Shown piece by piece: positions 42,628-61,812 of a stretch of 64,000 nt of DNA. Within the stretch, counting starts at the first letter, position 1, and each line of letters starts with the position of its first letter. The stretch is taken from contig CAZNDQ010000001.1 in NCBI GenBank assembly GCA_964571825.1, forward strand, positions 5,540-69,539, read 5' to 3'. The notes beneath the pieces are model-generated. The model had not been told where the DNA came from, ran no database searches, and was given only the letters and a program-made list of their open reading frames with translations. A program made the position numbers and the translations under genes. This DNA comes from an uncultured Planctomycetales bacterium. GTDB taxonomy: Bacteria > Planctomycetota > Phycisphaerae > UBA1845 > G020352895.

Positions 42628-43653
42628 TCAGCTTCGCGCCGGCATACCCAGCGCCGCGCACAACTCCGCCGTGACGGGGTCGTACACGCGCCGCATGCGC
42701 AGCGAGATGGCGATATCAGCGGCAAGCATGGGCAGGATGAGCAGCGGTTCGATGGCGGCGACACCGGCGGCAGCAATGCACCTCACGGCGAGGTCCGCGG
42801 CGACGATGAAACGAGCGTTGCGTACCGGGGCGAGGGCATGTGCTCCGATGAGGAGGGCCACGACCACAGCCTCGGCGCCCGTGGCAATGCCGGTGGGCAA
42901 CAGGAGGAACGGGAGAGGAGAGAGGAGCAGAAGGTCCGTCAAGAGACGGTGCGGAGCGCCGCGCTGGTGAGCGCGCGCGTAGGGATTGTCGTGGCCGCGC
43001 GACGATGCGCGCAGCACCCGCCACGCGAGGCGCGGACCGTACAGCAGCGCCAGGGACGCGACCCACACTGCGATGCCGATTGCGACGCCCAGGAGAGCCA
43101 CAGGCGCGCCGTAGAGACACGCGGCGGCAACGGCGGGCAGGGAGAACGCGGCGCCCTCCTTGAGGCTCAGCAGCGCGAAGACGAGGACCGCGACGCCGAG
43201 CAGCGAGCCGTGGAGCCCGGCACCAATGGCGAGCAGCGTCACGGCAGCGACGGGTCCGTCCTGCAGCGCGCGGCGCCCCACGATGTGGAGCAGCGGCGAG
43301 ACGAGACAGAGCGCCACGGCCGCGTATGCGATCGTGTACTCGGTGAGGATGTCAGCGAACGCATACGCGGCGGCGAGCGGCGCCATGAGCAGCGACAGCA
43401 GCGGCAAGGCGCGGTGCGATACGCGGCGGAACAGCGCGACCAGCAGCAGCCAGAGCCACCGCGTCGGTGCGGGGAAGCAGTGCAGGTCGGGGCGATCGAC
43501 GAACCGCTGCGCGAGGCGGCGGAGCGCGCCGATGCCCTCGGTGCGGGTCGCGTCGGCCTGTGCCGTGTAGACGATCTCGTCGTAGCCCGCGACGGGCGGC
43601 GGGTCGGCTGGGATGCGGCCGGAGACGGCGGCGTAGAGCTGGGCGGCGGTCAT
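42628..43653 (-). CDS. polytopic membrane protein (about 9-10 TM)
   Basis: Hydrophobicity pattern. Sits in the GT/methyltransferase cluster. Confidence 0.55.
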   Translation of the reverse strand: MTAAQLYAAVSGRIPADPPPVAGYDEIVYTAQADATRTEGIGALRRLAQRFVDRPDLHCFPAPTRWLWLLLVALFRRVSHRALPLLSLLMAPLAAAYAFADILTEYTIAYAAVALCLVSPLLHIVGRRALQDGPVAAVTLLAIGAGLHGSLLGVAVLVFALLSLKEGAAFSLPAVAAACLYGAPVALLGVAIGIAVWVASLALLYGPRLAWRVLRASSRGHDNPYARAHQRGAPHRLLTDLLLLSPLPFLLLPTGIATGAEAVVVALLIGAHALAPVRNARFIVAADLAVRCIAAAGVAAIEPLLILPMLAADIAISLRMRRVYDPVTAELCAALGMPARS

Positions 43654-43826
43654 TCGCCCACCGTGTCCGCAGCAAGCCGTGCGTCAAGCGCAGCAACGCG
43701 GCACCATGACGACAGGCTGGAATGCACCAGGTCGGATCGCAGGTGCGCGTCCGCGATTGCCATGGTTCCGATCGTGCTCAGCGCAAGCACAATCGAACCG
43801 AAGAACCACGAGTCGTTGAGTTCCAT
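43650..43826 (-). CDS. small single-TM protein
   Basis: ATG at 43826 lies 7 nt after the TATGCG of a class II motif. ATGA overlap downstream. Confidence 0.4.
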   Translation of the reverse strand: MELNDSWFFGSIVLALSTIGTMAIADAHLRSDLVHSSLSSWCRVAALDARLAADTVGE

Positions 43827-43831
43827 GCCGC

Positions 43832-43848
43832 GCCGCATAGCACGACAC
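43832..43848 (-). promoter_or_regulatory. class II 17-mer GTGTCGTGCTATGCGGC
   Basis: 17/17 match. Confidence 0.6.
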
Positions 43849-43861
43849 GGCAGCGCTGCAC

Positions 43862-44491
43862 CTAGCGCCGAAACACACCCAGCGTCATCGTCGCAGCGTT
43901 GGTCTTGTCGCCCTTGAGCCGACGTAGCGGTGGCGATTCGTCACGCCACCCTGCGTCACGCAGCAGTTTGCAGCACTCGCGCGGCACGTCGAAGTCGCGA
44001 TCGTCGAACACGAACAGCGATACGCGCGGCGACGCAATGACCTGCTCGGTGAAGCGGCGCTGCTCGTCGGCGTGGTCGCCGTCGTAGAACACCACGTCGT
44101 AGTCCAGCGGCGCGGCGAGCGTCTCACTGCGGTCGAACGCGACGGAAAGCTCCGGCGCGTCGAAGTACTTGAGGCGGTTGCGGTCGAAGTCGACCGGCTT
44201 CGCTGGGCGCCCTACCCACTGGTCCGCCACGTGGGCGTCGACCGTGTGGAGCCGCCAATTCTCCGGCGACTCACGCAGCGAATGCACGATGCCGCACGTC
44301 GACAAGCCGCGGTAGTGGCCCACCTCCAGGATGCGGTACTCGCTGCCGTAGCAGTCGCCGCCGCGGACCAGCGCCATCAGCAGGTCCAGCTCCGCGACGC
44401 TGAGTAGGCCACCCTGCGCGCCCCACACCTCTGCGCCGAGCGCTTTGATTTGCGCGGCGTTCATGGCCTGGGTGGCGTTGTGTCGCGGCAC
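43862..44491 (-). CDS. class I SAM-dependent methyltransferase
   Basis: ILEVGHYRGLST (motif I-like) and VFYDGDH (post-I acidic loop). Confidence 0.55.
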   Translation of the reverse strand: MPRHNATQAMNAAQIKALGAEVWGAQGGLLSVAELDLLMALVRGGDCYGSEYRILEVGHYRGLSTCGIVHSLRESPENWRLHTVDAHVADQWVGRPAKPVDFDRNRLKYFDAPELSVAFDRSETLAAPLDYDVVFYDGDHADEQRRFTEQVIASPRVSLFVFDDRDFDVPRECCKLLRDAGWRDESPPLRRLKGDKTNAATMTLGVFRR

Positions 44492-44525: not shown

Positions 44526-44702
44526 TCAAAGTACGACCCACACCAGCAGCGCCGCGGTCAGCGCGTGCAGCACCGACCACGCCGCGAAGGGCCACGCGCC
44601 GTACACCGACGCGATGACGAGCCACACCAGCGATGCCGTCGCGTTGGCGAACAGGCCGGCAATGAGGATGGGTCGCGCGTCGGGTGGCGGGAGTGCGGTC
44701 AT
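44526..44702 (-). CDS. small 2-TM membrane protein
   Basis: ATG at 44702 lies 9 nt after the hexamer of a class II variant. Confidence 0.4.
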   Translation of the reverse strand: MTALPPPDARPILIAGLFANATASLVWLVIASVYGAWPFAAWSVLHALTAALLVWVVL

Positions 44703-44709
44703 TGTGTCA

Positions 44710-44726
44710 GCCACATAGCACGACGC
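44710..44726 (-). promoter_or_regulatory. class II variant GCGTCGTGCTATGTGGC (15/17)
   Basis: Two substitutions, same orientation and context. Confidence 0.5.
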
Positions 44727-44760
44727 ATATGGCCACCATTCCGCTGCAACCGTGGCCGAA

Positions 44761-46194
44761 TCACGCCGCAAGCGCATCCGCCTGCTCGCGCTGCGCTTTC
44801 GCCTCGGCGATGTCCTCGCGCAGCCGCTTGGCGTTTTCGTCGAACCGCGCCCACTCGCTCCGCGGCAGCCGCGGCGTCGCGCGCAGCTGCTCGATGTAGT
44901 GCAGCGCTTCCTCTTGGCGACCGAGCCGCGCGAGCGCCCCGATCAGCTCATCGAAGGCACGCCACTGATACACCGGCTCGTGCACCATCAGTGCGTCTTG
45001 CGGCATCTGCATCTGTGCCGCGCGGCGCGCGAACAACTCGGCCAGCGCATAGTCGCCCGAGTCGTTGCAGATGACCGCGCATGCCCACAGCGGCTCGGCG
45101 CGTCGCGGGCGCATCTGGTACGCCTCGAGGTAGTTGCACAGCGCAGCGCGCCGGTCCGCGTCGGTCCGATTCGCGCGCTTGCCGTCCTTCTCGCCGGTCT
45201 CGCCGCCGCTCGCCTTGTAGTCGAACAGCGCGGCGCGCATCCACGCGGCGTAGTACCGCTCTTCTGGCCAGCCACCGAGCGACACGCGCTTGTCGAACGC
45301 GTCGATCGCCTCGTCGATGCACAACGCACCGGCGAGCGCCTGGCCGAGGTAGTACCAATGACGCGGGTTGTTCGGCTCGCGCTCCACCATGCCGCGCAGC
45401 ACCTCGGCGTCGCGGAGGTACTTGTCGCGGCCCTGGTCGTTGCGGTGCGAGTCGTTGTGGCTCAGCACCTCCAGCGGCAGACACGGCGGGGGCAGCAGTG
45501 GCATGCCCTTGGGTAGCGTCAATACCTCGTGTAGCTCGTACACGTAGTGCCAAGGCAACGCGGCGCGCACCAGCACGCGGCGTACCCAGACGCCGTCGTG
45601 GTCCGTCATGCGCAGGCGGATCGAGTACGCGTCCGCGGTGAGCGGTTGCGGGTCGCCTGGATTGGCCACGTCTTCGCAACCGACGTGGCCAAAAGTGACG
45701 CCGTCCGGTCCGGTCAGTTCCTCGTCAGCGTCGATGACGAACAGGTAGCCGGTGGCGTCACCTCCGTCGCGGGCCAGAACCTCGCGACCCAGATCGAGCG
45801 ACTGGTTTCGGTTGGTGGAGAAGTCGACCCACTCCCGTTCGATCAACTCGCCGGGCATGTCAGCCATCATCTCGCGGACGATGTCCTGCGTGCCGTCGGT
45901 GCTGCCCGTGTCCACGATCGCCCAGTGCGTCACGTGCGGGCGCACGGTGCGGAGGCATCGTTCGATGACCTTCGCCTCGTTGCGGACGATCATGCAGAGG
46001 CATACCGGCGTGCGTGGCGAGTCCGCGTGCGGTTGCTGACCGTTGCTGTCAGCTGGTGAGCGCGAAACGTTACCGTTGGTGTAACTTTGCGCGCGTCGGG
46101 CAACCGCGTGCTCGGGCAGGATGTACCCGTGCGCGATGAGCCAGAAGCGCAGCCACGCGACGAGGCGCGACCAGGCGCGGATGATTCGGTCCAT
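44761..46194 (-). CDS. GT2-family glycosyltransferase with C-terminal TPR-like repeats (paralogue A)
   Basis: CLCMIVRNEAKVIERCL..IVDTGSTDGT..DADE motifs. C-terminal WYYLGQALAG-type helical repeats. ATG after GGGAGGG. Confidence 0.75.
   Translation of the reverse strand: MDRIIRAWSRLVAWLRFWLIAHGYILPEHAVARRAQSYTNGNVSRSPADSNGQQPHADSPRTPVCLCMIVRNEAKVIERCLRTVRPHVTHWAIVDTGSTDGTQDIVREMMADMPGELIEREWVDFSTNRNQSLDLGREVLARDGGDATGYLFVIDADEELTGPDGVTFGHVGCEDVANPGDPQPLTADAYSIRLRMTDHDGVWVRRVLVRAALPWHYVYELHEVLTLPKGMPLLPPPCLPLEVLSHNDSHRNDQGRDKYLRDAEVLRGMVEREPNNPRHWYYLGQALAGALCIDEAIDAFDKRVSLGGWPEERYYAAWMRAALFDYKASGGETGEKDGKRANRTDADRRAALCNYLEAYQMRPRRAEPLWACAVICNDSGDYALAELFARRAAQMQMPQDALMVHEPVYQWRAFDELIGALARLGRQEEALHYIEQLRATPRLPRSEWARFDENAKRLREDIAEAKAQREQADALAA
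45847..45936. repeat. 90-bp segment identical to 51112..51201
   Basis: Base-by-base identity read directly. Encodes VTHWAIVDTGSTDGTQDIVREMMADMPGEL. Confidence 0.9.
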
Positions 46195-46321
46195 CACTGC
46201 CCTCCCAGGCGATGGTGAGATGTGTCCCGCCGCGCTAGCTAGGCGCATTGGCTTTCGGCGACCCGTGGCTACCCATTGAGTCGCTCATGCGGGCCGGACC
46301 AGCCCGGGTAGTTGTGTTGCG

Positions 46322-46642
46322 CTACGTCGCCGGGTTTCCGCCGCCGACCTGCCAGCCGCGCAGCGTGGCGATCACTTCCATGCCGGTCGCGCTCGCCTCC
46401 AGCCGGATGTGGCTGATCGCTTCGGGGATCTCGACGCACGTCGCAGCGGCAAGGCTGATCGCCGTGCCGTGGTCGATGTACGTCGTACCGTCTGCGCTGA
46501 TCTCGACGTCGAGCGTGCCGCTGTTGAATGTGCCGGTCAGCGTGAGCCACTTGTCGGCCATGTCGCCGCAGAACATTGCGGTACCGTCAGCCGGCGTCGC
46601 CGGGCACGCCAAGCGGCGGAAGATGTAGCCTCGATCGCTCAT
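46322..46642 (-). CDS. hypothetical head-module protein
   Basis: Position only. Confidence 0.4.
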   Translation of the reverse strand: MSDRGYIFRRLACPATPADGTAMFCGDMADKWLTLTGTFNSGTLDVEISADGTTYIDHGTAISLAAATCVEIPEAISHIRLEASATGMEVIATLRGWQVGGGNPAT

Positions 46643-46654
46643 TGTGCCTCGCTG

Positions 46655-47290
46655 TCAATACAGCGCGATTGCGCCGCCGCCCATTCCGCCGCCGGCCTGT
46701 CGGCCGAGCCACCATTCGTAGATCCCGCAGAGCTTTGCGAGTTCACCGCGCCAGTACTGCCGCGCGTCGACCAGCTGCGCGAAACGCGTCTGCGACGATG
46801 CGCTGCTGCCGGCCGGGTAGAACTCGATCTCATCGACGCGCTTCAGCCCGGCGCCCTGTACACCGCTGCCGCCCCCGCCAAGCTCGTCGGCGATGAGTTG
46901 CAGTTGGCGGAGCGCATTGCGCACGTGCGACTCGCCAGCTTCGACCACAACGGGGTACGTGCCGCTGTGCGCCTTCTGCAGCAACACGGTCAGCGACGTG
47001 CCGCTGATGCTCTGCACGCTGCAAAGCTCCTGGCGTGCATCGACGTCTACAACGACGCGGTCAAACGCCGCGAAGCCCGTACCTGACGCGAGCGTCAGCG
47101 TGACGGGCGTCGGTGCCGACGCTGCGGTGACAGCGGTGCTCGACGTGGTCGATGCGCCCGCCGTCATGTACTGCTGAATCACCGACGTGAAAACGGAATG
47201 CACGCCAATGAATGGCTCGGCACCCACCTCCAGCAGATTCACGCCAAGCTCGGCGCGGATGCGAAGAACCTCGCTATCAGTGAGACTCAT
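46655..47290 (-). CDS. hypothetical head-module protein
   Basis: Position only. Confidence 0.4.
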   Translation of the reverse strand: MSLTDSEVLRIRAELGVNLLEVGAEPFIGVHSVFTSVIQQYMTAGASTTSSTAVTAASAPTPVTLTLASGTGFAAFDRVVVDVDARQELCSVQSISGTSLTVLLQKAHSGTYPVVVEAGESHVRNALRQLQLIADELGGGGSGVQGAGLKRVDEIEFYPAGSSASSQTRFAQLVDARQYWRGELAKLCGIYEWWLGRQAGGGMGGGAIALY

Positions 47291-47316
47291 GGCCGGCTAC
47301 CTCGCAGGCAACCGGC

Positions 47317-47730
47317 TCAGTGCTGGCGGTACTGATAGCCGATGGAGAACGTATCCGACGCCGTTCCGGTCACGACGCCGACCTCGATCGCCAGGCGCGC
47401 GTACTTGAAGCCCTCGATGCAACTTGGCGCAGGAATCACCTTGGTGACCGACGCGTCAGCGCCGTCCGTGCCAGTGGCGAGCACGACGGCCGCTGCGTTC
47501 TGCGACCCGTTGGCCACGTCGACCCAGGTCGTGGTGTCGTTGCTGGCCTGCCACTTCGCGGCGAGGGTGATCGTGTCGGTCTCGGCGTCGACCGTGACGA
47601 GTGCGCTGAGCGACTCGGCGCGCTGCTTGGAGCCACCGATCGTCACGTGGTTTCCGGTGACCGTTCCACCTGGCGCTACGCCAGTCGCGGTGCCGGTCTT
47701 GAGGTGTGCGTTATAGCGAAGAAAGCCCAT
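47317..47730 (-). CDS. hypothetical protein (decoration or head-associated position)
   Basis: Directly follows the capsid gene. Confidence 0.4.
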   Translation of the reverse strand: MGFLRYNAHLKTGTATGVAPGGTVTGNHVTIGGSKQRAESLSALVTVDAETDTITLAAKWQASNDTTTWVDVANGSQNAAAVVLATGTDGADASVTKVIPAPSCIEGFKYARLAIEVGVVTGTASDTFSIGYQYRQH

Positions 47731-47846
47731 CTTGTATCGGTGCCTCTGTCAGTGCGCGACTCGCGCGGTGTGGCGCACCAGGCGCCGAGAGATTGGGTGC
47801 CGACCGCCCGCGCCGTGACGCAACGGGCGGTCAGCTGCGCTCAGCA

Positions 47847-48932
47847 CTAGGCCGAGCTGCGAACGCTCAGCACGAAGCTGTTGTCGGCGAGGCCGAACGC
47901 GTGATCGGCGAGCCAGATCACCTTCGCGGTTTCGCCGTAGTTGTCGTCGGTCGACGCGGCGACGCGCGGCGCGCGACCCATGCCGGCGAGCAGCGCTCCG
48001 GGGGCGATCAGGTGACCGCGGTGCACGTTCACCGAGGAGCTGTTCGCCGGAGCGTTCAGCGTGGTCGCCTTGAACACGTGCATCTTGCTGATGCTGCCCA
48101 CGTAGGACGGGAACACGGCGTTGTACTGCGGATGCGCCTTGCCCCACTCGATGCCGTCCGAGTCGCCCTTGAGCTGACGCAGCTGCGTCGGGCTGAGCAC
48201 GAGCATGCGGAAGCCGTCGCCGAGCGTCGGCAGGTTCGCGTCGTCGGCCTGTTGCTCCGCTCTGAAGATCTGCTCCAGCGTCAGCGGGAACGATCCGACC
48301 GTGGTCGCATCGTTGTCAGCGCTCATGCCATCGGGGTAGACGGTGGTCGACGCGAGGTCGAGCAGCGCCACGTTCACGATGTCGAGGAACCGATCGTAGT
48401 CACGCCGCAGCTGGCTGCCGACGATCTTGCTTGCCTTGTGCACACCCATGTTGGCGTCGAACGCCTCGATTCCCATCGGGGCGACGCGGCTGTTCGCGCT
48501 GTCGTACGGGCCACCGTAGCGGAACAGCGTGAGGCTGGTCTGCTGCGCGGTCGGCTCGATCGCCGTGGTGCTGATCGAGGTGCCCGTCGCAATGCGGCGC
48601 GCGCTCTCGGTCGCCGTGGTGTTCTCGTATACCGGGCGATTGATGCGCACCGTGTTGCCGGGCGCCGCGTTGAAGTCGACCGTCGCGGCGATGATCTCGC
48701 TCGACAGCGGGCCGCTCAGCATCAGGCGATCCTGCTCGGCCGCGGCGTAGTCAGCGCCGACGCCGCCGACGCTGCGACCGGGGAGGCCCAGCTCCTCGGG
48801 GGTGTCGAGCGACGCCATCAGTGCCGACTTGAACAGCTGCGCGTAGAGGTACTGCGGCTCGGGCGCCGCAAGCAGCATGTCGCTGGTCTTGTCGTAGAAG
48901 CCCTCGGGCATCGAAACGCGGGAGTAAGACAT
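47847..48932 (-). CDS. major capsid protein
   Basis: 361 aa, after the scaffold-like gene. AAGGA SD. Size and position typical of HK97-fold MCPs. Confidence 0.65.
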   Translation of the reverse strand: MSYSRVSMPEGFYDKTSDMLLAAPEPQYLYAQLFKSALMASLDTPEELGLPGRSVGGVGADYAAAEQDRLMLSGPLSSEIIAATVDFNAAPGNTVRINRPVYENTTATESARRIATGTSISTTAIEPTAQQTSLTLFRYGGPYDSANSRVAPMGIEAFDANMGVHKASKIVGSQLRRDYDRFLDIVNVALLDLASTTVYPDGMSADNDATTVGSFPLTLEQIFRAEQQADDANLPTLGDGFRMLVLSPTQLRQLKGDSDGIEWGKAHPQYNAVFPSYVGSISKMHVFKATTLNAPANSSSVNVHRGHLIAPGALLAGMGRAPRVAASTDDNYGETAKVIWLADHAFGLADNSFVLSVRSSA

Positions 48933-49029
48933 GTGTCATCCTTCGCCGCGCGTATCGCTGCGGCGTAATCTGTCCGTTGACTTCCCGGGGCGCGCCAACA
49001 CCGCTATGCGGGAGGCGCAATGAAAGGCT

Positions 49030-49830
49030 CTACGCGGACTTCTCGTAGACCTTGGGGTTCGCCGCGGCATAAGCAGCAGCGGCAAACGGATTGGCCGACC
49101 TGGCGCGCTCGTACACCTCGCGGTGATTCGGCTCGCTGGTCGTGACAGCGCCGGCGGGTGCGCCGGGGCTGAGAGTCGTGTTGGCGGGTGCAGCGGGCGT
49201 CTGCGCCGCGGCCTGCTGTTGCGCGGTCACCGCAGCAGCTGCGACAGCAGCGGCCTGCGCCGCTTCCTTCGCCTTCTGCCACGTGGGCGCCAATGCGCCG
49301 ATCGTGCGGAGCTGCGCAGCGACATCGTCACCCGCAATCGCCTTGACCGCGGCCTGCTCGTCTTCGCTGAGCACGCCCATCATACGCGCGGCCTGCTCCG
49401 TCGCGACAGCCTCGAGCGCAGCAGCGCGGTCCTGTGCGGCTTTTGCTGCGGCGGCTTGCTCAGCGGCGCGCTGCTCGGCGGTCTTGCTCGCCTCGGCTGC
49501 CGCTTGTGCTGCGGCAATGGCCTGCTTTGCCGCTTCGACGTCGGTGATCCCAAGCTGCGAGAGCAGCTCGGCCTGCGCGGACTTCTTCGCCGTCTCCAGG
49601 CGCGGAGCAAGCCAGCGGGGGTCGCCTGGCTGCGGCTCTGCAGGCGGTTGCTGCTGAGCAGGTGCCGGCGGTGTCGGAGCGGTGGGCGGTGTGGCGGGCG
49701 CAGGTGGCGCGGACTGCGCCGGCTGAGCGGGCGCAGCCGTCTGCGCTGGTGCCACGGCTGGCGCGGTCGGGGTCGTGGGCGGTGCGGTGGGCGCAGGATT
49801 GCCCTGCGCAGCGGTCTCAGTACCAGACAT
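49030..49830 (-). CDS. scaffolding protein with Pro/Thr/Ala-rich N-terminus
   Basis: Ala/Gln/Glu-rich helical body directly upstream of the capsid gene. Confidence 0.55.
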   Translation of the reverse strand: MSGTETAAQGNPAPTAPPTTPTAPAVAPAQTAAPAQPAQSAPPAPATPPTAPTPPAPAQQQPPAEPQPGDPRWLAPRLETAKKSAQAELLSQLGITDVEAAKQAIAAAQAAAEASKTAEQRAAEQAAAAKAAQDRAAALEAVATEQAARMMGVLSEDEQAAVKAIAGDDVAAQLRTIGALAPTWQKAKEAAQAAAVAAAAVTAQQQAAAQTPAAPANTTLSPGAPAGAVTTSEPNHREVYERARSANPFAAAAYAAANPKVYEKSA

Positions 49831-49838
49831 TGCGTTCT

Positions 49839-49865
49839 CCGTTCGACCGATTAACGGGCGTCGTC
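49839..49865 (-). promoter_or_regulatory. conserved leader element (copy S), shared with 56590..56615
   Basis: GACGACGCCCGTTAATCGGTCGAAC, with hairpin CCGTT/AACGG, just before the scaffold ATG. Confidence 0.5.
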
Positions 49866-49896
49866 CCCTGGGGAGATGTTGTGTTGGTTCGACGCG

Positions 49897-50154
49897 CTAC
49901 GCGTCGGTCACGATCGCCATCACGCTCCACTTGTCGACGAACGTGCGGTATGGCTGAAAGCTCATCTCTGCCTTGGCCCGCTCCTCCTCGGGAAGGCACC
50001 ACTCACTGACAAGCACGGCGTCGCCGCGCTTTACGCCCTTTGCTTCTGGCCCAACGGCGAGCACCTCAGCAAGCAGCCCACCCGGCGAGTCTTCGCGGAT
50101 CTTGTTCTCCACGATCTCGACATCGACGTGGCTGCCCATTGGCTTCGTCTTCAT
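49897..50154 (-). CDS. GroES/Cpn10-like protein
   Basis: KPMGSHVDVEIVE..GGLL..AEVLAVGPEAKGVKRGDAVLV..VMAIVTDA is co-linear with the GroES pattern, with a short mobile loop. Confidence 0.5.
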   Translation of the reverse strand: MKTKPMGSHVDVEIVENKIREDSPGGLLAEVLAVGPEAKGVKRGDAVLVSEWCLPEEERAKAEMSFQPYRTFVDKWSVMAIVTDA

Positions 50155-50160
50155 TGGTCC

Positions 50161-51297
50161 CTATGCAGCGGCTCGCGCCGCGTCGTTCTGTGCCGCCAGC
50201 CCACGCATGTATGCGAGGTTGTCCGCCATGCGCTGGCGATGCTCTGCGGGAATGCTTGGGTGCGTGGCGAGCGGTGCGTAGATACGCAGCGCCTCGTCAA
50301 TGCGCCCGAGGTTCGTCAGCGCGCCGCACAGTTCCTCGGCGGCGCGGTAGTGGTAGACGCTGCCGTACACAGGCAACGAGTCGGTGGGTCGCCTCAGTCG
50401 ACACGCAGCGCGTGCCCACACCTCGGCGAGGGCGTGTCGCCCTGCGTTGGCGTGCAGCACCGCAATGGCCCAGCACGGCTCGGCTCGCGTCGGGCGGGCC
50501 TCATAGGCGCGCTCGTAGGCGGCAATGACCTCGGCGTCGTCGCGGCCGAGAAACTCCAACAGGCGCGCCGTCTCGTAGTGCGAGTGGAAGACCTCTTCGT
50601 CGAAGCCGCCCTCCATCTGCACGCGCCGCGCAAACGCATGCAGCGCCGCGTCGTACTGCTGCGCGCCGGCAAGCGCCTGCGCGAGGTAGTACCAGTGTCG
50701 CGGGTTGTGCGGGTCGTCGGCGATCTCAGCACGCAACAACTCGGCGTAGCGCGCACACTTCGCCTTATCGTCCTCCGACGAGTGACCGTCGGCGTGGTTG
50801 CGCAGCCGGAAGCCCTCGACGATGCGGTGCGGACCGTCCTGTCCCGGGCACGCCACGACCTCGTGGATGCGACCGACGTAGCGCCACGGAAGGTCCAGCC
50901 TGATCAGCGTCAGCCGATACCAGCGTTGATCTTCCATCTCCAGCGGGATGGCGTACGCCGCCTCGGTCAGCTCAGGCAGCGTTGCGCCGTCGTCTGCCTC
51001 CAGCACCTCGTCGGCGTCGATGCACAGCGCGTAGTCGGCGCCCATGTCGCGCGCCATCGTCAGCGCGCGGTTGCGTGCCGAGCTGAAGTCGCGAAACTCC
51101 ACCTCGGCAAGCTCGCCGGGCATGTCAGCCATCATCTCGCGGACGATGTCCTGCGTGCCGTCGGTGCTGCCCGTGTCCACGATCGCCCAGTGCGTCACGT
51201 GTGGCAGCACCGAATCGAGACAGCGCGCAATGACACGCGCCTCGTTGCGCACGATGAGACACGCGCAGACGCGCGGTGACGTGTTCCCTCCCGTCAC
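50161..51297 (-). CDS. GT2-family glycosyltransferase with C-terminal TPR-like repeats (paralogue B)
   Basis: CACLIVRNEARVIARCL..IVDTGSTDGT..DADE. WYYLAQALAG repeats. Confidence 0.75.
   Translation of the reverse strand: MTGGNTSPRVCACLIVRNEARVIARCLDSVLPHVTHWAIVDTGSTDGTQDIVREMMADMPGELAEVEFRDFSSARNRALTMARDMGADYALCIDADEVLEADDGATLPELTEAAYAIPLEMEDQRWYRLTLIRLDLPWRYVGRIHEVVACPGQDGPHRIVEGFRLRNHADGHSSEDDKAKCARYAELLRAEIADDPHNPRHWYYLAQALAGAQQYDAALHAFARRVQMEGGFDEEVFHSHYETARLLEFLGRDDAEVIAAYERAYEARPTRAEPCWAIAVLHANAGRHALAEVWARAACRLRRPTDSLPVYGSVYHYRAAEELCGALTNLGRIDEALRIYAPLATHPSIPAEHRQRMADNLAYMRGLAAQNDAARAAA
51112..51201. repeat. 90-bp segment identical to 45847..45936
   Basis: Direct repeat, same orientation, 5.26 kb apart. 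Confidence 0.9.
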
Positions 51298-52105: not shown

Positions 52106-52375
52106 CTACTTGCGACCGCGCTTGTTGCGCTTCGGTGCGTCAGCCGCACTCGCCGTATGCGCGTCGGGTGACGCAGACGCGTCGCCATCCGCAGGGCTGT
52201 TCGCAGAAGCGGCATCGTCCGCTGCAGATGGCGAGGACATGTCCAGGGCCGTCACCGGCGCGGCGTCGCGCTTCGGTGCGCTGCCGACACATGCGCCCCA
52301 CGACGCCTCGCCGCAGCGCGGACAGGTGGGCGCCGCGTCGTCGTTTTCGTGATGGCAGATGAGGCAGGGTTTCAT
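52106..52375 (-). CDS. zinc-ribbon protein with acidic/Ala-rich tail
   Basis: MKPCLICHHEN..CPRCG. ATGA overlap with the upstream gene. Confidence 0.4.
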   Translation of the reverse strand: MKPCLICHHENDDAAPTCPRCGEASWGACVGSAPKRDAAPVTALDMSSPSAADDAASANSPADGDASASPDAHTASAADAPKRNKRGRK

Positions 52376-53079
52376 AGCTCCGACTTTCGGACGATGACCA
52401 GTGTGTCCATGCAGCGACAGTTGGGATGCACGGCACCGGGCTCGCCATCTGGCCACGTGTCGTCTGCCGCGATGATCTCGTCGTCGTAACCTCTGCAGAC
52501 CTTGCAGGAGTCCAGCGCGGCGAACCACTTGCGGGCAACAACCAGCGCATCTGCGCGGTCCGGGTTGGCCTTGGCGACTGCGTCGGCCACCTTCGCCGCG
52601 GCCTGCGAGCGCACAGCGGAGAACGACAGCGCGTTCTCGGTGGCGACGGTAGACGCTAGACCGCGACGGATGGCGCGCGACGCCACGATCCGCGGTGACG
52701 AAGTCCCCGTCGCCTTGGCTGCGACGCGCTGCGCCTCCCAGCGCTTGGCGACGCGCTTACCGATGCGCTCGGCGTGGCGGCGATCTGCGGCGCGCTCCTT
52801 GGTGAACGCGTCGAATGCCGGAAGCGTCGGCTGTACGAGCTTGGCAGCAATGAGCGCCGCGGTCAGCTCGCGCTTCATCGCCCGCAGCGATACGCGTCTG
52901 GCGCGTCGTCGTGCGAGCAAGATCGCAGCGGCTACGGCAGCGGCGACTTTTGCCTCGTTGCCGTTGCGCGCGGCGCTATTCGTCGTCCGCTGCGCCTCGG
53001 TCTGACTCGTCCGCTCCGCCGCGAGCAGATCCGCCGCGCTTTGCAGGTGCGCCCTCGTCACCGTCCTCGGCGTCGGCAT
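52372..53079 (-). CDS. head morphogenesis protein (Mu F / SPP1 gp7-like)
   Basis: C-terminal VHPNCRC motif. Follows the portal gene. The start may lie downstream of 53079 because of a 104-nt overlap. Confidence 0.6.
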   Translation of the reverse strand: MPTPRTVTRAHLQSAADLLAAERTSQTEAQRTTNSAARNGNEAKVAAAVAAAILLARRRARRVSLRAMKRELTAALIAAKLVQPTLPAFDAFTKERAADRRHAERIGKRVAKRWEAQRVAAKATGTSSPRIVASRAIRRGLASTVATENALSFSAVRSQAAAKVADAVAKANPDRADALVVARKWFAALDSCKVCRGYDDEIIAADDTWPDGEPGAVHPNCRCMDTLVIVRKSEL

Positions 53080-54736
53080 TTAGCTTCTCCACGGCGTCGT
53101 GCAGTGCCTTGTCGGCGGCGCCCTTCTCCGTCTCCAGCTCCTTCAGGTAGCCTTCGACGTCGTCAATGCCGTAGCGCTGTGCGCGGCGCTCAACGGCGCT
53201 ACGTAGCGTGATGATGCCGGCCTCCAGATCGTCGCGGACCGTGGCGGCTTCCTTCTGCTCGTCCTCGAGGTCCGGCGTGAAGTAACTCGGCCACGCCAGC
53301 GTGATGTCGCTCTCGTCAAGCTCCGCCGCACGCTGCACCGCAGCCATGAGGCGCCGCGGGAACCTGAGCGCGCCCTCGCCGACCTTCGCGATGATCCGCA
53401 GCAGCATCAGTGAAGCCGGGATCAGGAAGTTGTCGCCGAAGTCGTCGCGGTACTGGTCGCAGCGGTTGATCTGCCGCGCGCGGAGCAGCTGCAGGGCTTT
53501 GCCCGACAGCGCCGATGCGAACTTGAACGCGTCGGCGTCCAGGAACACGACGGCCAGCGACTCGGCGAGCTTGATCCGCTGGTCGCGCGCGTTGTCGTCG
53601 ATCGCCTTGAGCGCGTCGCCCGGCAGCGTGTGGAGCTGGACCTTGGCGTTGGGATTGTCGTACTGCCAGACCTCGCCGGGGCCTTTGCGGCGGCCCATCT
53701 TCTCGGTCGAGCCGCTGATCCATCGGCTATTGGCAGGGTTGTCGCCCTTGTAGCCGACAATCTGGTTCGTCGTCTGATCGTAGATTGGCTCGCTCGGACT
53801 GCCGCCCCGTGGCGTGCCGTCCATCTCGACGACGTATCCGGGCGCCGTTGGGCCGGTGCCGCGACGAACGCCGATCTCGGTCCATTGAGGATCGCCGGCC
53901 ATCAGCGCTGCGCGGTGCCGCTGCGACACGCTGAAGTCGTGCGCGCGCACCTCGTCAAGCAGCAGCTCGTGGATGGCCCTGCCGTCGAAGCTACCCTCGA
54001 TTGAGCAGCCGCGCATGTGCGCGTACCAGACAACCGGGCAGAACCCGAAGCCGTGCACAGCCTTGCGCTTTTCGCGCCAGCCAGATTCGTCTAGTGGCGA
54101 GCCGTGCTTGTCGGCTACGCGCGGCTCGTACTCGACATCGACCTTACCGTCGATGACGCGGCGGTAGAGCTTCGTGACGCGATGCCACTTGCCATCAGCG
54201 CCAAGTGCGTCCTCAAAAAACGGGTACTGCACGACTAGGCGCGACACCTTGCCGTCCTCGTCGAACTCCGGCTCGCACTTGGCCGGATCGATCGTGGTCG
54301 CGCTGAGGCGCCCGTTGACTACGCCAAACGTGACGCAGCCGGATCGGCAAGACTGCCCGGTCCCGAACACCTCTTTCGCGACGGTGCGAAACCGAACGCG
54401 ACGGTGCGCCTCGGCGATGGCGTCTGTGACGTCGTTGCTCTCGGTGGCCCGCTCTTCGCCCTGCTCGTCCTCGACCGTGACGTTGAACGCCGGCCAGCGC
54501 GCGTTCCCGAGCAGCAGGTCAAGGTTGCTATCGATCGCGTTGCGAACGATTGGATAAACGAAGCACGGCGCGCGCTTGAACAGCGGCACGTCCGCTGCGA
54601 ACCAGTCGGCGAGGTGTTCGTACTGTCGTCCGTCGACCCAGCGCTGCAGGTCCTCGAGATAGTGCGCGCGGGGTGACTTGTTGCACCTCGCGGTTTCGCG
54701 CGCAGCTTCGGCGCCTACAAGCTGCACGTCGGCCAT
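52976..54736 (-). CDS. portal protein
   Basis: 586 aa, immediately after the large terminase. Acidic C-terminus. Confidence 0.7.
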   Translation of the reverse strand: MADVQLVGAEAARETARCNKSPRAHYLEDLQRWVDGRQYEHLADWFAADVPLFKRAPCFVYPIVRNAIDSNLDLLLGNARWPAFNVTVEDEQGEERATESNDVTDAIAEAHRRVRFRTVAKEVFGTGQSCRSGCVTFGVVNGRLSATTIDPAKCEPEFDEDGKVSRLVVQYPFFEDALGADGKWHRVTKLYRRVIDGKVDVEYEPRVADKHGSPLDESGWREKRKAVHGFGFCPVVWYAHMRGCSIEGSFDGRAIHELLLDEVRAHDFSVSQRHRAALMAGDPQWTEIGVRRGTGPTAPGYVVEMDGTPRGGSPSEPIYDQTTNQIVGYKGDNPANSRWISGSTEKMGRRKGPGEVWQYDNPNAKVQLHTLPGDALKAIDDNARDQRIKLAESLAVVFLDADAFKFASALSGKALQLLRARQINRCDQYRDDFGDNFLIPASLMLLRIIAKVGEGALRFPRRLMAAVQRAAELDESDITLAWPSYFTPDLEDEQKEAATVRDDLEAGIITLRSAVERRAQRYGIDDVEGYLKELETEKGAADKALHDAVEKLNADAEDGDEGAPAKRGGSARGGADESDRGAADDE

Positions 54737-54780: not shown

Positions 54781-56121
54781 CTACATGTCGGCGATGACGG
54801 TCTTGGTTGCGATGGGTGCGTTGGCGGCGCGTAACGCCATGGCCAGCGCCCAGAATGAATCAGCGTGTCCCTCGCTGGTCCGCGGCGCCTCATACGAGAC
54901 GTTGCCGGCCTGCGTGACGACGCGCTTGATGGAGCACACGTCGCGGAACAGCTGCTCGTTGTCGCGAGGCATTCGGATCATGTCCGACGCGAACAGCGAG
55001 TGCGCGCGCGTCGCCATGTCCTCTTTGCTCTGCAGGGTGAAGCTCACGGGCTCGACGCTCATCTCGCCGTACGCCGCTTGCGCCTCGGAGGCAGGGAACG
55101 CACCCAACCCGGTCGCGTCGATGCACATGCGCTCCACACCGAACGGCGGCGCGAAGGCGCGCGCCACGAGCATCTGAATGTCGCCGAGCTGCGTGCGCTT
55201 GCAGGTGGCAGTGTGGACCACGTGGTAGCGCCCGTCGTGGTTGCGTCGCACGATGGCCAGCTCTGTCCGATCAACCTCTTTGCCGATGTCGAGCCCAGCC
55301 CAGCACGGTCCGTGCGGGATGTACGTCGAATCGATGCGGGCCGCTTCGACCAGGTGCGTCGGGATGTACTGCTGCTCGTTGTCTAGGAATGAGCAGCAGA
55401 ACAGCTGGTTGAAGACGCGCTCGTCGCCGCGCGCCAGCCTCCAGCAGTCGGCGATGTCGACTGGCATGCCATCGGCGATGGCGTCGTCCAGCGTTACGGC
55501 GTGGCGCGAGTACCCTTCGTTCTGCTTCGGGTCACTCCACAGCTCGTAGAACAGACCCGCCGCGCCGTTGGGCGTCGACAACCCGCGGATGCGGTAGCCG
55601 TGCAGCGCGGTGCCCGCCGCGCCGTCCCACACCTCGTAGGGCCGGTCGTAGTACGCCAGCTCGTCCAGGATGACGTTGCCGCTAAACGAGCGGCCCGCCG
55701 ACGTGTTGGGCAGCGACAGAATGCGCCCGCCATCGCCGCGGCCGTTGCCGCGCATGATGAGCTTGGTCGCACTGTTGTGCAGCGGGACGGCCCATCGCGA
55801 GCCAAGCTCGGCGAGCGCCGATGCGTGCAGCTTCGACTTGGCGAGGACCTCGTCGGCCTCGCGCTGCCCCAGCGAGATGACGGTCGTCGTCTCGCCGAAC
55901 AGCCCCCACAGCACCGCGGCACCCGCGATGGTGTGGCTGATCCCGATCTGTCGCGACTTGAGCGCGAGCATGAACCGCGACCAATCGAGTATCCACTCGA
56001 GCTGGAAGCGGTAGAACGTGTGCAGCCACGCGTCTACCGCGGCGAACTCACGCGACGGTAGCGCCTCGCGCAATCCGTCGTAGGTCCGCTGGGCGTCAGC
56101 GCTGAGAGTCGGCAGCGCCAT
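54781..56121 (-). CDS. terL: terminase large subunit
   Basis: Walker A-like KSRQIGIS and Walker B-like VILDELA, followed by a nuclease-half pattern. Position fits. Confidence 0.8.
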   Translation of the reverse strand: MALPTLSADAQRTYDGLREALPSREFAAVDAWLHTFYRFQLEWILDWSRFMLALKSRQIGISHTIAGAAVLWGLFGETTTVISLGQREADEVLAKSKLHASALAELGSRWAVPLHNSATKLIMRGNGRGDGGRILSLPNTSAGRSFSGNVILDELAYYDRPYEVWDGAAGTALHGYRIRGLSTPNGAAGLFYELWSDPKQNEGYSRHAVTLDDAIADGMPVDIADCWRLARGDERVFNQLFCCSFLDNEQQYIPTHLVEAARIDSTYIPHGPCWAGLDIGKEVDRTELAIVRRNHDGRYHVVHTATCKRTQLGDIQMLVARAFAPPFGVERMCIDATGLGAFPASEAQAAYGEMSVEPVSFTLQSKEDMATRAHSLFASDMIRMPRDNEQLFRDVCSIKRVVTQAGNVSYEAPRTSEGHADSFWALAMALRAANAPIATKTVIADM

Positions 56122-59672: not shown

Positions 59673-59796
59673 GGTCAACGGCGGGATTCGAACCCGCGAC
59701 CTCCCTCGTGCAAAGAGATAACCGTTCCGCTGCGGCCCGAATCGGGCAAAGAGGTGCGAGACGGAATAGGCGCTCTACCAGCTGAGCTACGTTGAC
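59673..59796 (-). ncRNA. tRNA-like RNA with a Y-RNA-type hairpin in place of the anticodon arm (module 3)
   Basis: Perfect acceptor (GTCAACG/CGTTGAC), D arm (GCTC-AGCTGGTA-GAGC) and T arm (GCGGG-TTCGAAT-CCCGC). A 68-nt insert carries CTTTGCCCG-ATT-CGGGCCGCAG..GGTTATC. Confidence 0.65.
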
Positions 59797-59843
59797 CGGT
59801 GTTCCCGGCTTGAATTGCACCAGCGTTACCGGCGTGAAAGGCG

Positions 59844-59894
59844 ATAACCCTCATGCTTCGGCCCGCGGACGGGCAAAGTGTTGCCGAGGGGTAT
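59844..59894 (-). ncRNA. Y-RNA-like module 2 (Ro-helix motif closed by a tetraloop)
   Basis: ATACCCCTC..CTTT-GCCCG-TCCG-CGGGC-C-GAAG..GAGGGTTAT folds as one long hairpin with a bulged C. Confidence 0.5.
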
Positions 59895-59929
59895 TGAACG
59901 GTGTCCTGCTCACTAGACGACGGGAACAG

Positions 59930-59992
59930 ATGTCGGGCAAGTTGGTGCGGCAGGGGAACATACCAGATAACCCTACCACTTCGGCCCGACAT
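59930..59992 (-). ncRNA. Y-RNA-like module 1 (compact, canonical topology)
   Basis: Termini pair as ATGTCGGGC/GCCCGACAT, with bulged C/G, AAGT/ACTT, GGTAGGG/CCCTGCC and loop TTATCTGGTATGTTC. The 5' end coincides with the predicted TSS. Confidence 0.65.
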
Positions 59993-59997
59993 GGAAA

Positions 59998-60015
59998 CTC
60001 TATAGCACACCACAC
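59998..60015 (-). promoter_or_regulatory. class II-related promoter of the Y-RNA cluster (GTGTGGTGTGCTATAGAG)
   Basis: TGC-TATAGA extended -10. 6 nt to the A that starts the Y-RNA terminal helix. Confidence 0.55.
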
Positions 60016-60035
60016 GCGTCGCAGTATTGGCAGCC

Positions 60036-61787: not shown

Positions 61788-61794
61788 GACTTGG

Positions 61795-61811: not shown

Positions 61812-61812
61812 A

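Follow-up and report, generated by a model that had tools for sequence, protein, structure and literature searches.

SunS and ThuS are peptide S-glycosyltransferases that modify glycocins, SunS being encoded by the prophage SPbeta, and GmaR is the O-GlcNAc transferase of Listeria flagellin. All three act in the cytoplasm and use a nucleotide sugar to glycosylate a peptide or structural protein directly, as described for GmaR and flagellin (PMC9638930). In cluster O mycobacteriophages, an O-methyltransferase and glycosyltransferases are encoded between the portal and capsid-protease genes (PMC4351075). A polytopic GT-C protein of the lipid-carrier type normally signals extracytoplasmic glycosylation of envelope polymers (PMC11127046).

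Here, we describe a probable glycosylation cassette of an uncultivated phage in a 64-kb stretch of DNA, referred to in its entirety as the window. Two genes, GT-A and GT-B, each encoding a GT2 glycosyltransferase with TPR-like repeats (GT2-TPR), bracket a head module in this window (Table 1).

Table 1. Features of the glycosyltransferase and head gene region, in window coordinates.
Feature	Coordinates	Strand	Remarks
GT-C-fold membrane glycosyltransferase-like protein, minimal (predicted)	42628..43653	minus	341 aa, ≈10 transmembrane helices
Class I SAM-methyltransferase-like protein	43862..44491	minus	Methyltransf_24 type, 209 aa
Small ORF (2-TM)	44526..44777	minus	83 aa, two C-terminal hydrophobic helices
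GT-A	44761..46194	minus	GT2 + TPR glycosyltransferase, 477 aa; ORF open to ATG at 46248
Possible second, older conversion tract	45331..45375	minus	NPRHWYYL.QALAG; partner 50668..50712 in GT-B
90-nt block, copy 1	45847..45936	minus	inside GT-A; encodes HVTHWAIVDTGSTDGTQDIVREMMADMPGE
Head module between GT-A and GT-B	46322..50154	minus	
Small head gene	46322..46642	minus	
Small head gene	46655..47290	minus	
Small head gene	47317..47730	minus	
Major capsid protein	47847..48932	minus	PHROG 1357 major head protein
Scaffold	49030..49830	minus	
85-aa ORF	49897..50154	minus	
GT-B	50161..51297	minus	GT2 + TPR glycosyltransferase, 378 aa
90-nt block, copy 2	51112..51201	minus	inside GT-B; encodes HVTHWAIVDTGSTDGTQDIVREMMADMPGE

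Two divergent GT2-TPR genes

As a preliminary description of this DNA had stated, both genes encode a GT2 region: each scores above the 23.3-bit cut-off of the Pfam GT2 model PF00535 (GT-A, 32.4 bits; GT-B, 42.4 bits) and contains the motifs IVRNEA.VI.RCL, IVDTGSTDGT and DADE. The TPR-like C-termini, also proposed there, fell below threshold when single sequences were matched to TPR models, but were recovered with the family profile, which matched consensus TPR proteins (E = 4e-25) and the TPR region of OGT (E ≈ 4e-11). No transmembrane helices were found in the GT2-TPR enzymes. GT-A falls in PHROG 13126 (E = 1e-25) and is identical to sequence P0019 from the same NCBI contig (94,892 bp), while GT-B matched GmaR (4.5e-12) and SunS (3.8e-9) among PDB sequences. 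An N-terminal extension of ≈60 aa with a Trp/Leu/Arg-rich hydrophobic helix is present only in GT-A; it has a GC3 of 0.78, and from 46194 to 45993 the reading frame offers no other start codon.

By BLASTP, GT-A and GT-B are 45% identical over 402 columns (E = 1e-97). Outside a shared 90-nt block, identity is 54% for DNA (43% at third positions, with no identical run longer than 13 nt) and 42% for protein, bearing out the earlier claim that the genes are paralogues divergent over most of their length. In a tree calculated with the block masked, they were placed in separate subclades: GT-B with its orthologue P0002 as sister (≈60–61% identity), which has the equivalent position in locus L015, and GT-A with P0004 and P0005 (51%) and a methyltransferase-linked clade. 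The divergence and the separate subclades indicate either an old paralogy or independent acquisition of GT-A and GT-B. Recent duplication was ruled out by the 42% masked identity and the tree.

Evidence for a short gene-conversion tract

The two copies of the block are identical base for base over precisely 90 nt, making it the longest exact repeat of the window; the runner-up is 36 nt. The block corresponds to 30 codons, in frame, in the nucleotide-sugar-binding part of the GT2 domain. Elsewhere in the two genes, only 56% of the codons for identical residues match, and the probability of 30 identical codons, given identical amino acids, is ≈3e-8. Even at 70% identity, a value assumed for the conserved N-terminal region, a 90-nt identical run would arise by chance with P < about 1e-11.

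A recent gene conversion had been proposed for the block, and the identical synonymous sites, a three-way identity scan along the genes and the split in the masked tree all support it. In the scan, the block, its flanks and one short patch stood out by a GT-A/GT-B identity clearly above that of GT-B with its sister; the excess was smaller close to the 5' end and in two windows of the C-terminal part. We are highly confident that the identity reflects a short, recent, intragenomic gene-conversion (patch-recombination) tract. The source is a metagenome-type contig, and IVDTGSTDGT, part of the block, is a conserved GT2 motif, so that an assembly or consensus artefact or purifying selection on the motif might be considered. 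We regard the chance of either as very slight, since both copies are in frame within unique, diverged flanks, all 30 codons agree at their synonymous sites as well, half of the block (QDIVREMMADMPGE) varies across the family, and ordinary short reads, if such were used, would be expected to span 90 nt.

The conversion probably ran from GT-A to GT-B, because the short block peptide is closer to that of the GT-A clade (P0005, QDIVRAEMADLPGQL) than to that of the GT-B sister (P0002, PALVHEAMAGIPGKL). A second pair of segments (Table 1), 87% identical at the nucleotide level over 15 codons, had a GT-A/GT-B identity of 0.83 in the scan, compared to 0.64–0.67 between GT-B and its sister, weakly hinting at a possible older tract. 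Deletion between the direct repeats, another earlier suggestion, is mechanically possible, but would be lethal, as the scaffold and capsid genes would be lost with it.

The bracketed head module

The head module is syntenic with 19 related loci, as well as with L020 and L021. The bracketing holds for the 85-aa ORF, the scaffold, the capsid and three small head genes, but the label "GroES-like" previously given to the 85-aa ORF does not: its only support is a sub-threshold ADH_N match (E = 0.028), and no match was found among PDB sequences. The Pro/Thr/Ala-rich N-terminus of the scaffold and the Thr/Ser-rich structural proteins had been taken as clues to glycosylation. However, this N-terminus is equally present in relatives without any glycosyltransferase, the Ser/Thr content of the head proteins shows no difference between relatives with and without the cassette, and no head-protein feature correlated with cassette presence in the relatives. 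The circumstantial scaffold argument therefore fails.

The cassette in related phages

At least eight related metagenomic phages have one GT2-TPR gene in the same slot, which precedes the scaffold and capsid genes. In most of them, this gene is either coupled with or fused to one that is homologous to the membrane-protein gene at the far end of the region (Table 1). The membrane-protein homologue follows GT2-TPR immediately in L007, L016 and L017; in L019, a methyltransferase gene lies between the two; and in L005, L020 and L021 they form an in-frame fusion. All of these cassettes occupy one shared slot. Further GT2-TPR::membrane fusions were found in P0131 and P0135, and P0172 is fused in the reverse order. 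In L015, the GT2-TPR gene has no adjacent membrane gene.

The methyltransferase of the window matched PF13578 below threshold (E = 1e-4), and is 62% identical to that of L019. Because of the gene order in L019 and a natural GT2-TPR::methyltransferase fusion, P0007, it appears to be functionally linked to GT2-TPR. The 83-aa ORF had no Pfam or PHROG match and no homologue at any related locus, and is unique to this genome.

When relatives were collected by the capsid protein alone, the cassette was present in only about 2 of 13, and is therefore dispensable for assembly. We consider it probable that the cassette, which includes a methyltransferase and a GT-C-fold protein absent from the preliminary description and so changes the mechanistic picture, is a functional unit. 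It is accessory and combines GT2-TPR with a minimal GT-C-fold membrane protein and, in some cases, a SAM-methyltransferase. A lineage of high-GC, metagenome-only myoviruses carries it as an insertion in the late head operon, with the small head genes on one side and the scaffold and capsid genes on the other. The genome described here has a duplicated and split cassette: GT-B retains the ancestral slot, directly before the scaffold and capsid genes, and GT-A is placed right after the head genes, together with the 2-TM ORF, the methyltransferase gene and the GT-C-like gene.

Cellular GT2-TPR homologues adjoin a GT41 OGT-like gene, genes for a secreted collagen-like protein with RmlA and RmlC, or a PMT_2 gene, canonical in the case of Streptomyces marianii; many have no GT-C neighbor. 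Tunturiibacter phage Tunturi_5 encodes a homologue at 36% identity, and its surroundings contain no membrane partner.

The membrane protein has a predicted GT-C fold

The AlphaFold (AF2) model of the membrane protein had a pLDDT of 95.2 and a pTM of 0.93. A Foldseek search of the PDB returned ALG9, ArnT and ALG3 as the top five matches, followed by STT3, Pmt4, Emb and AftA, with a TMq of 0.51–0.60 for ArnT. By this model, the protein is a minimal GT-C-fold enzyme. The window protein itself had no Pfam match and no sequence-level match to the PDB, but distant members of its family match PMT_2 (PF13231). An Asp-Glu motif is typical of GT-C catalysis. In 55 diverse family sequences, ≈20 charged or polar positions show complete or almost complete conservation, among them such a motif (Asp25 invariant, Glu26 nearly invariant).

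The usual first GT-C helix is missing. The Lys/Arg-rich loops are all on the side of the Asp-Glu motif, the opposite loops being almost devoid of Lys and Arg; in family members that possess the first helix, it lies right at the N-terminal end, preceded by 4 Lys/Arg and followed by 24. Since the fusions have no transmembrane helix between GT2-TPR and the membrane protein, and given the charge distribution, the conserved face is predicted to be cytoplasmic. To our knowledge, this is the opposite of every known GT-C enzyme.

The membrane protein might instead be a non-catalytic anchor, or unrelated, with GT2-TPR using nucleotide sugars to glycosylate virion proteins directly, in the way that GmaR modifies flagellin. 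This would suit L015 and the GT-B position, which lack an adjacent membrane gene, as well as Tunturi_5 and the many cellular homologues without a GT-C neighbor. However, the ≈20 conserved residues argue that the membrane protein is an active enzyme, and the repeated, independent fusions in both orders argue that it acts jointly with GT2-TPR, making a passive role improbable.

Proposed function

When the GT2-TPR profile was searched against the PDB, it matched SunS (1.5e-22), GmaR (3.2e-22) and ThuS (2e-16), and neither GtrB nor DPMS, which are polyprenyl-phosphate GT2 enzymes, was among the matches. The protein-directed action suggested earlier is thereby supported by homology. With SunS and GmaR as the closest solved relatives, late, membrane-associated protein glycosylation is the best overall explanation for the conserved cassette, with a probability of roughly 0.6. 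The cassette and capsid genes would share a transcript late in infection, as suggested by the gaps of 7 and 6 nt that flank GT-B and by the coding strand, which from 42 to 53 kb has no site resembling a promoter or terminator. Soluble GT2-TPR would dock on the membrane protein, to which it is fused in some phages; together, they would glycosylate an acceptor in the cytoplasm, most likely a TPR-bound protein, and the methyltransferase would subsequently O-methylate the glycan. We put the odds that the acceptor is a protein at about even. Position and precedent make virion head proteins the leading candidates, although only tentatively so.

A polytopic GT-C partner of the lipid-carrier type is unexpected for modification of a capsid in the cytoplasm.

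The pairing of a GT2 with a GT-C enzyme is characteristic of three-component extracytoplasmic glycosylation, of which phage-borne systems exist (PMC11127046). By this alternative, GT2-TPR would charge undecaprenyl phosphate with a sugar, the product would be flipped, perhaps by the 83-aa 2-TM protein, and the GT-C-like protein would transfer the sugar to LPS, a surface polymer or a protein. Receptors would then be masked, leading to superinfection exclusion or sparing progeny from adsorption to debris. The GT-C fold, the PMT_2 matches of distant family members, the gene pair in S. marianii, the accessory nature of the cassette and an integrase encoded within the window are all in line with such a system. 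We nevertheless find it unlikely: GT2-TPR lacks transmembrane helices and resembles SunS, GmaR and ThuS rather than a GtrB/DPMS-type synthase; there is no conserved flippase, the 83-aa ORF being confined to this genome; the membrane protein has no first helix, and its conserved face is predicted on the cytoplasmic side; and the genes are in the late head operon without a promoter-like site of their own, unlike typical lysogenic-conversion genes. Because of the integrase, the cassette may still have a role in lysogenic conversion.

Comparison with known systems

The membrane protein resembles PMT, TMTC and ArnT (the PMT_2 group) in its fold, in the PF13231 matches of distant members and in the invariant Asp-Glu in the first loop region, and some members of its family carry TPRs, like TMTC. 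It differs in having ≈10 transmembrane helices without the first one, an inverted predicted orientation, and, for the window protein, no PDB sequence match or Pfam match of its own.

Like the GtrABC seroconversion systems of temperate phages, the cassette combines a phage-encoded GT2 with a GT-C-fold membrane enzyme (PMC11127046). Its GT2, however, is soluble and SunS-like, not GtrB-like; a conserved flippase is lacking; the GT-C-like protein is minimal, without the first helix or extracytoplasmic domain, and predicted to face the cytoplasm; and the genes are in the late head operon, not beside the attachment site.

Mycobacteriophages (Corndog/cluster O, Che8) likewise have an O-methyltransferase and several glycosyltransferases inside the structural operon (PMC4351075). 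The relevant portions of PMC4351075 and PMC11600133 mention no GT-C-like membrane partner, unlike the cassette. No sequence relation to the mycobacteriophage glycosylation genes was found, with no mycobacteriophage among the tblastn matches; the host here is probably not an actinobacterium, and virion glycosylation, in contrast to theirs, is a prediction from sequence.

The closest likeness in architecture is to SunS, ThuS and GmaR, which share the N-terminal GT2 domain (GT-A fold) with its DxD motif, followed by TPR-like helical repeats. Nevertheless, the phage GT2-TPR proteins are remote from SunS, scoring 37–40 bits against the SunS equivalog model TIGR04195 (cut-off 350 bits), and no glycocin precursor or transporter is encoded nearby. 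Unlike SunS and GmaR, they are encoded within a head operon, where a GT-C-fold membrane protein and a methyltransferase are their coupled or fused partners.

Two anciently diverged glycosyltransferase genes flank the phage head genes

The genome in the window is myovirus-like and lies on the minus strand. The region 44100-52000 had no DNA similarity to known phages, the capsid protein had no tblastn match in 50,697 phage records, and no similar isolated phage was found in GenBank. A genome scan with a narrower alignment returned only two contigs (L020 and L021), both in Polyangiaceae MAGs and both again phage. The GC content of these Polyangiaceae-binned contigs (65-68%) and that of the window (67%) weakly suggest a possible myxobacterial host.

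Features of the window, with coordinates on the forward strand
Feature	Position	Strand	Remarks
Tyrosine integrase	3015..4046	+	PF00589, 5.7e-18; N-terminal SAM-like domain
GH25 lysozyme	14268..15245	-	peptidoglycan-binding domain
D12-class (Dam-like) DNA methyltransferase gene	16530..17531	-	
Exact direct repeats within the D12 gene	16971..17086		36 and 31 nt, offset 48 nt
ORF with tRNA-Pro at its 5' end	34732..35739		
tRNA-Pro (anticodon TGG)	35646..35720	-	~1.1 kb beyond the tail-sheath gene, on its 3' side
Tail sheath	36830..38407	-	
Membrane protein mem	42628..43653		341 aa
Gap between methyltransferase and mem	43654..43861		208 nt
Methyltransferase	43862..44491		
GT-A	44761..46194	-	477 aa, P0019; frame open up to ATG at 46248
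90-nt block, GT-A copy	45847..45936		
Small head protein	47317..47730		
85-aa ORF	49897..50154	-	
GT-B	50161..51297	-	378 aa, P0001
90-nt block, GT-B copy	51112..51201		
MuF-like head protein	52372..53079	-	
Portal	52976..54736	-	assigned by position and similarity to the gene preceding the head genes in related loci; no PHROG match
Large terminase	54781..56121	-	
Region resembling a phage Ro60 gene with Y RNA	59673..62090	-	
124-nt tRNA-like element	59673..59796		Rfam, 48.2 bits
ceN72-3_ceN74-2	59930..59993		Rfam, 48.7 bits
Ro60/TROVE + vWA protein	60036..62090	-	PF05731, 1e-47; PF25045, 2.4e-60

GT-A and GT-B, which had been described as paralogues combining a GT2 catalytic region with TPR-like repeats, were both real minus-strand ORFs containing the quoted motifs. 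The 477-aa version of GT-A (P0019) and GT-B share one 94,892-bp NCBI contig. The two proteins aligned by BLASTP with 45% identity over 402 columns, bearing out the paralogy. Both matched PF00535 (GT2) above the gathering score of 23.3 bits, with 32.4 bits for GT-A and 42.4 bits for GT-B, and both matched PHROG 13126. The DxD motif reads IDADE in both proteins, and D94-A95-D96 (GT-B numbering) is invariant among 33 family members.

When the 90-nt block shared by the two genes was masked, GT-A and GT-B were 42% identical. The closest relative of GT-B was then P0002 (60%), encoded at the same position in the related contig L015, while GT-A was closest to the homologues P0004 and P0005 (51%) and clustered with P0003 (locus L019) and P0007 in a methyltransferase-linked clade. 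Judged by sequence, GT-A and GT-B are not recent duplicates. GT-A carries an N-terminal extension of ~60 aa that has no alternative start codon and a GC3 of 0.78, and which we consider real. A Trp/Leu/Arg-rich hydrophobic helix within this extension is the sole hydrophobic segment, there being no C-terminal transmembrane helices in either GT-A or GT-B, and it could hold the enzyme at the membrane.

Several other features of the genome were recorded. Directly downstream of the Ro60 gene are two Rfam matches, one of them to ceN72-3_ceN74-2, a nematode sRNA family whose members we take to be Y-RNA-like stem-bulge RNAs, and the other to a tRNA-like element; together, they resemble a Ro60 gene of the phage accompanied by a Y RNA of the YrlA type. 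A tRNA-Pro gene sits inside the structural gene block, and the D12 methyltransferase gene contains two exact direct repeats.

A 90-nt identical block points to gene conversion

The claimed identity between GT-A and GT-B was exact over 90 nt and could not be extended by a single base on either side. The block is the longest exact repeat of the window, the runner-up being 36 nt, and comprises 30 in-frame codons in a codon alignment of the two genes. An identity check along both genes confirmed their divergence elsewhere, with 54% nucleotide and 43% third-position identity outside the block, where the longest identical run was 13 nt. Since the same codon is used for only 56% of the identical residues outside the block, the probability of 30 identical codons is ~3e-8 with the amino acids taken as given; a 90-nt run by chance would have a probability below ~1e-11, even with 70% identity. 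Sequence varies within the GT2-TPR family over half of the block (QDIVREMMADMPGE), so purifying selection on the protein cannot account for the identity. Each copy is in frame and lies within unique flanks, which makes an assembly artefact unlikely.

The gene conversion proposed in the preliminary description was upheld: an identity tract that includes synonymous sites, diverged flanks and local phylogenetic incongruence were all found. In a three-way DNA scan of GT-A, GT-B and the L015 gene, which is the sister of GT-B, GT-B was nearer to GT-A than to its own sister most clearly at the block and a few flanking codons. One other short patch, NPRHWYYLAQALAG, showed the same pattern with 83% nucleotide identity and may be an older conversion tract; smaller excesses of identity were seen in two windows of the C-terminal part and also at the 5' end. 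The block peptide resembles the GT-A clade (P0005: QDIVRAEMADLPGQL) more than the GT-B sister (P0002: PALVHEAMAGIPGKL), and GT-A was therefore probably the donor, although this is a weak inference. The further suggestion that the block could mediate a deletion held in so far as the copies are direct repeats, 5,265 nt apart, but a recombination event between them would be lethal through loss of the scaffold and capsid genes, so the suggestion carries little biological weight. The tract represents a clean case in which two old paralogues of a phage genome have been homogenised over a short patch.

The glycosyltransferases belong to a cassette with a fixed site in the head operon

Relatives were collected as 14 IMG/VR loci via the capsid protein (40-67% identity), and others via the glycosyltransferase and mem proteins. 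The glycosyltransferase is absent from most relatives, and the cassette of GT2-TPR and mem, with or without the methyltransferase, is present in about 2 of 13 relatives selected by capsid protein; it is dispensable. Wherever a relative carries it, the cassette is found with the small head genes on one side and the scaffold/capsid genes on the other. L015 has the order of the GT-B site, with the glycosyltransferase, the 85-aa ORF and the scaffold following one another, and so GT-B holds the ancestral slot in the window. A second group directly after the head genes consists of GT-A, an 83-aa ORF with two transmembrane segments, the methyltransferase and mem. The 83-aa ORF had no family match and was absent from all related cassettes.

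In three loci (L007, L016 and L017), a single GT2-TPR gene is followed by a mem homologue, with a gap of at most 8 nt or an overlap, and L019 has the order GT2-TPR, methyltransferase (62% identical to that of the window), mem. In L005, L020 and L021, GT2-TPR and mem are fused in frame into a protein of ~700 aa. The same fusion occurs in P0131 and P0135, the reverse order, mem::GT2-TPR, in P0172, and a GT2-TPR::methyltransferase fusion in P0007. By sequence, the three functions are linked by these natural fusions, which also name functional partners for a large uncharacterised family of "TPR-containing glycosyltransferases" known from Streptomyces and myxobacteria.

Gaps of 7 and 6 nt lie on the two sides of GT-B, and the coding strand from 42 to 53 kb showed no promoter- or terminator-like sites, consistent with late co-transcription of the cassette with the capsid genes. 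The only sizeable gap in the glycosylation module, between the methyltransferase and mem, has no assigned gene and likewise showed no promoter- or terminator-like site; ORFs of at least 60 aa overlapping it are in alternative frames and fail the GC3 filter. The 85-aa ORF had been labeled GroES-like, a label that we could not support: the ADH_N "GroES-like" match was below threshold (E = 0.028) and there was no PDB match. This ORF is conserved only in L015 (57%), where it also directly follows the GT-B orthologue. In L019, which carries the cassette, the homologue of the small head protein has twice the length (14524..15387; 287 aa versus ~140) and may be an extended decoration protein. We found no description in the literature searched of GT2-TPR genes inside phage head operons.

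The GT2-TPR enzymes are remote relatives of protein glycosyltransferases

A profile of 33 GT2-TPR family sequences was searched against the PDB. It matched SunS (1.5e-22, positions 3-224), GmaR (3.2e-22, positions 1-193) and ThuS (2e-16), while the repeats matched a consensus TPR (4e-25, positions 177-297) and the TPR region of OGT (~4e-11). GmaR transfers GlcNAc to flagellin through its N-terminal domain, and recognition of the protein substrate has been ascribed, as a proposal, to the TPR (PMC9638930). On the SunS equivalog model TIGR04195 (NCBIfam), the window proteins scored 37.4 and 39.7 bits, far under the cut-off of 350 bits, and are therefore remote relatives rather than SunS orthologues. 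We rejected a glycocin (SunS-type bacteriocin) role, given that the genes lie in the head operon and that neither a precursor peptide nor a transporter context was apparent.

The neighbours of cellular homologues lean towards protein glycosylation, while proving nothing. A canonical PMT_2 gene adjoins a GT2-TPR homologue in Streptomyces marianii; it was considered as a member of the phage mem family and rejected. A GT41 OGT-like TPR protein neighbours another homologue in a 12.8-Mb genome. In Streptomyces griseoruber (L023, 3965..6116), a secreted collagen-like protein of 320 aa with long Gly-X-Y/GAQ repeats is encoded directly upstream of the chromosomal homologue P0095 and is preceded by RmlA- and RmlC-like genes; this protein is a candidate natural substrate of the family. 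Two GT2-TPR paralogues with a metallo-beta-lactamase-fold gene between them occur on a bacterial chromosome (L024, 7001..10126), and paired paralogues thus recur outside phages.

mem has a GT-C fold with a predicted cytoplasmic face

mem itself had no Pfam match, PMT_2 (PF13231) included. Word-index searches yielded only 3 and 6 homologues, and an exhaustive profile search was needed, giving a family of 425 representatives (50%-identity clusters). Distant members of 350-420 aa, some with TPRs, match PMT_2 with E down to 3e-14, and the member P0273 carries PF13231. The family profile had no match among PDB sequences, mem had no match in BFVD at E < 1e-3, and tblastn found none in the 50,697 phage records or in any isolated phage.

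An AF2 model from a 3-sequence alignment (pLDDT 54.6) was discarded; with 55 sequences, pLDDT was 95.2 and pTM 0.93. The best Foldseek matches of this model in the PDB were almost all GT-C proteins, including ALG9 (9.5e-4), ArnT (TMq 0.51-0.60), ALG3, STT3, Pmt4, EmbA/B/C and AftA, and on the model, mem has a GT-C transmembrane fold. No variation was seen among the 55 sequences at D25, R65, R236, D240, R281, R291 and D325, and E26 (at least 90% conserved), Y29, R127, D132, E166, Y225, Q230 and Y324 are nearly invariant. Like the PMT group, mem has an Asp-Glu motif (D25-E26) in the first loop. Given these conserved residues, mem looks like an active enzyme.

Known GT-C enzymes have their catalytic loop on the extracytoplasmic side, after the first helix (PMC11127046; PMC6801728), whereas the phage mem proteins have no first helix, start with the Asp-Glu region and are predicted to be oriented otherwise. 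In the GT2-TPR::mem fusions, a short hydrophilic linker runs from the cytoplasmic enzyme to the Asp-Glu region with no intervening helix, and in mem::GT2-TPR the conserved C-terminal YDPVT motif continues straight into the GT2 domain. The Lys/Arg-rich loops of mem (N-terminal region, 127-131, 206-235, 274-279 and C-terminus) are all on the Asp-Glu/C-terminal side, and the alternating loops are almost devoid of Lys/Arg, which fits a protein of ~10 helices with both ends inside. Twelve family members do have a first helix, at the extreme N-terminus; 4 Lys/Arg precede it and 24 follow, a charge bias characteristic of an N-out anchor. Taken together, the absent helix, the fusions, the charge bias and the anchor lead us to predict that the conserved Asp-Glu face is cytoplasmic. 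We know of no cytoplasm-facing GT-C enzyme, and found none described in the literature searched.

Discussion

The best-supported reading is that a late-expressed, membrane-associated glycosylation module would modify an acceptor in the cytoplasm, most likely a TPR-bound protein, and that the glycan would be O-methylated. Virion head proteins are the leading candidate, because of the invariant cassette slot and the precedent of the cluster O mycobacteriophages, in which an O-methyltransferase and glycosyltransferases lie between the portal and capsid-protease genes (PMC4351075); modification of the capsid and tail tube has been reported (Freeman 2023, cited in PMC11600133). Against a virion target stand the dispensability of the cassette and the lack of an acceptor signature. 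The Pro/Thr-rich N-terminus of the scaffold, previously offered as a hint, is the same in relatives with and without the cassette, as are the Ser/Thr content of seven head-protein families, which had also been invoked, and the capsid C-termini. It also counts against this target that, to our knowledge, no cytoplasmic protein glycosylation needs a GT-C partner.

The main rival is a Gtr-like modification of the host envelope, for which the pairing of a GT2 with a GT-C protein would speak, as would the integrase, which hints at a possibly temperate phage and is relevant to a role in lysogenic conversion. Gtr-type systems use a membrane-anchored GT2 of the GtrB/DPMS type, whereas the GT2 here is SunS-like, has no C-terminal helices, and gave no profile match to GtrB, DPMS or ArnC-type polyprenyl-phosphate synthases in the PDB at E < 0.01. 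Such systems also have a dedicated flippase (GtrA, SMR or MATE type), but no conserved flippase accompanies the cassette, the only candidate being the 83-aa ORF. The predicted topology of mem and the late-operon position likewise argue against envelope modification.

We give roughly a one-in-five chance to the most novel form of the head-protein reading, namely that mem and its ~425 relatives are an inverted GT-C branch with a cytoplasmic Asp-Glu face, paired or fused with SunS-like GT2-TPR enzymes, and that the phage builds methylated head-protein glycans at the inner face of the membrane from unflipped lipid-linked sugars, with the methyltransferase added. If true, this would mean both a cytoplasm-facing GT-C enzyme, a challenge to the general rule of extracytoplasmic action for this class, and virion glycosylation outside actinophages. 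The pairing and fusions provide a directly testable GT-C-fold enzyme that possibly acts on the cytoplasmic side.

As far as we know, glycosylated phage particles have been demonstrated only in mycobacteriophages, where virion glycans lower the neutralising antibody response. Like Corndog (PMC4351075), the window and L019 have glycosyltransferases and a methyltransferase in the structural operon near the capsid genes. The enzymes differ: the 19 tblastn matches of GT-B in the 50,697 phage records included none from mycobacteriophages. The presence of another set of enzymes, unrelated to the first, in a slot of this kind would suggest that sugar decoration of virions, or of another late target, is a recurrent phage strategy. 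SunS/GmaR-like GT2-TPR enzymes and structural-operon glycosylation are of kinds already known, while an inverted minimal GT-C enzyme would potentially be a categorical novelty.
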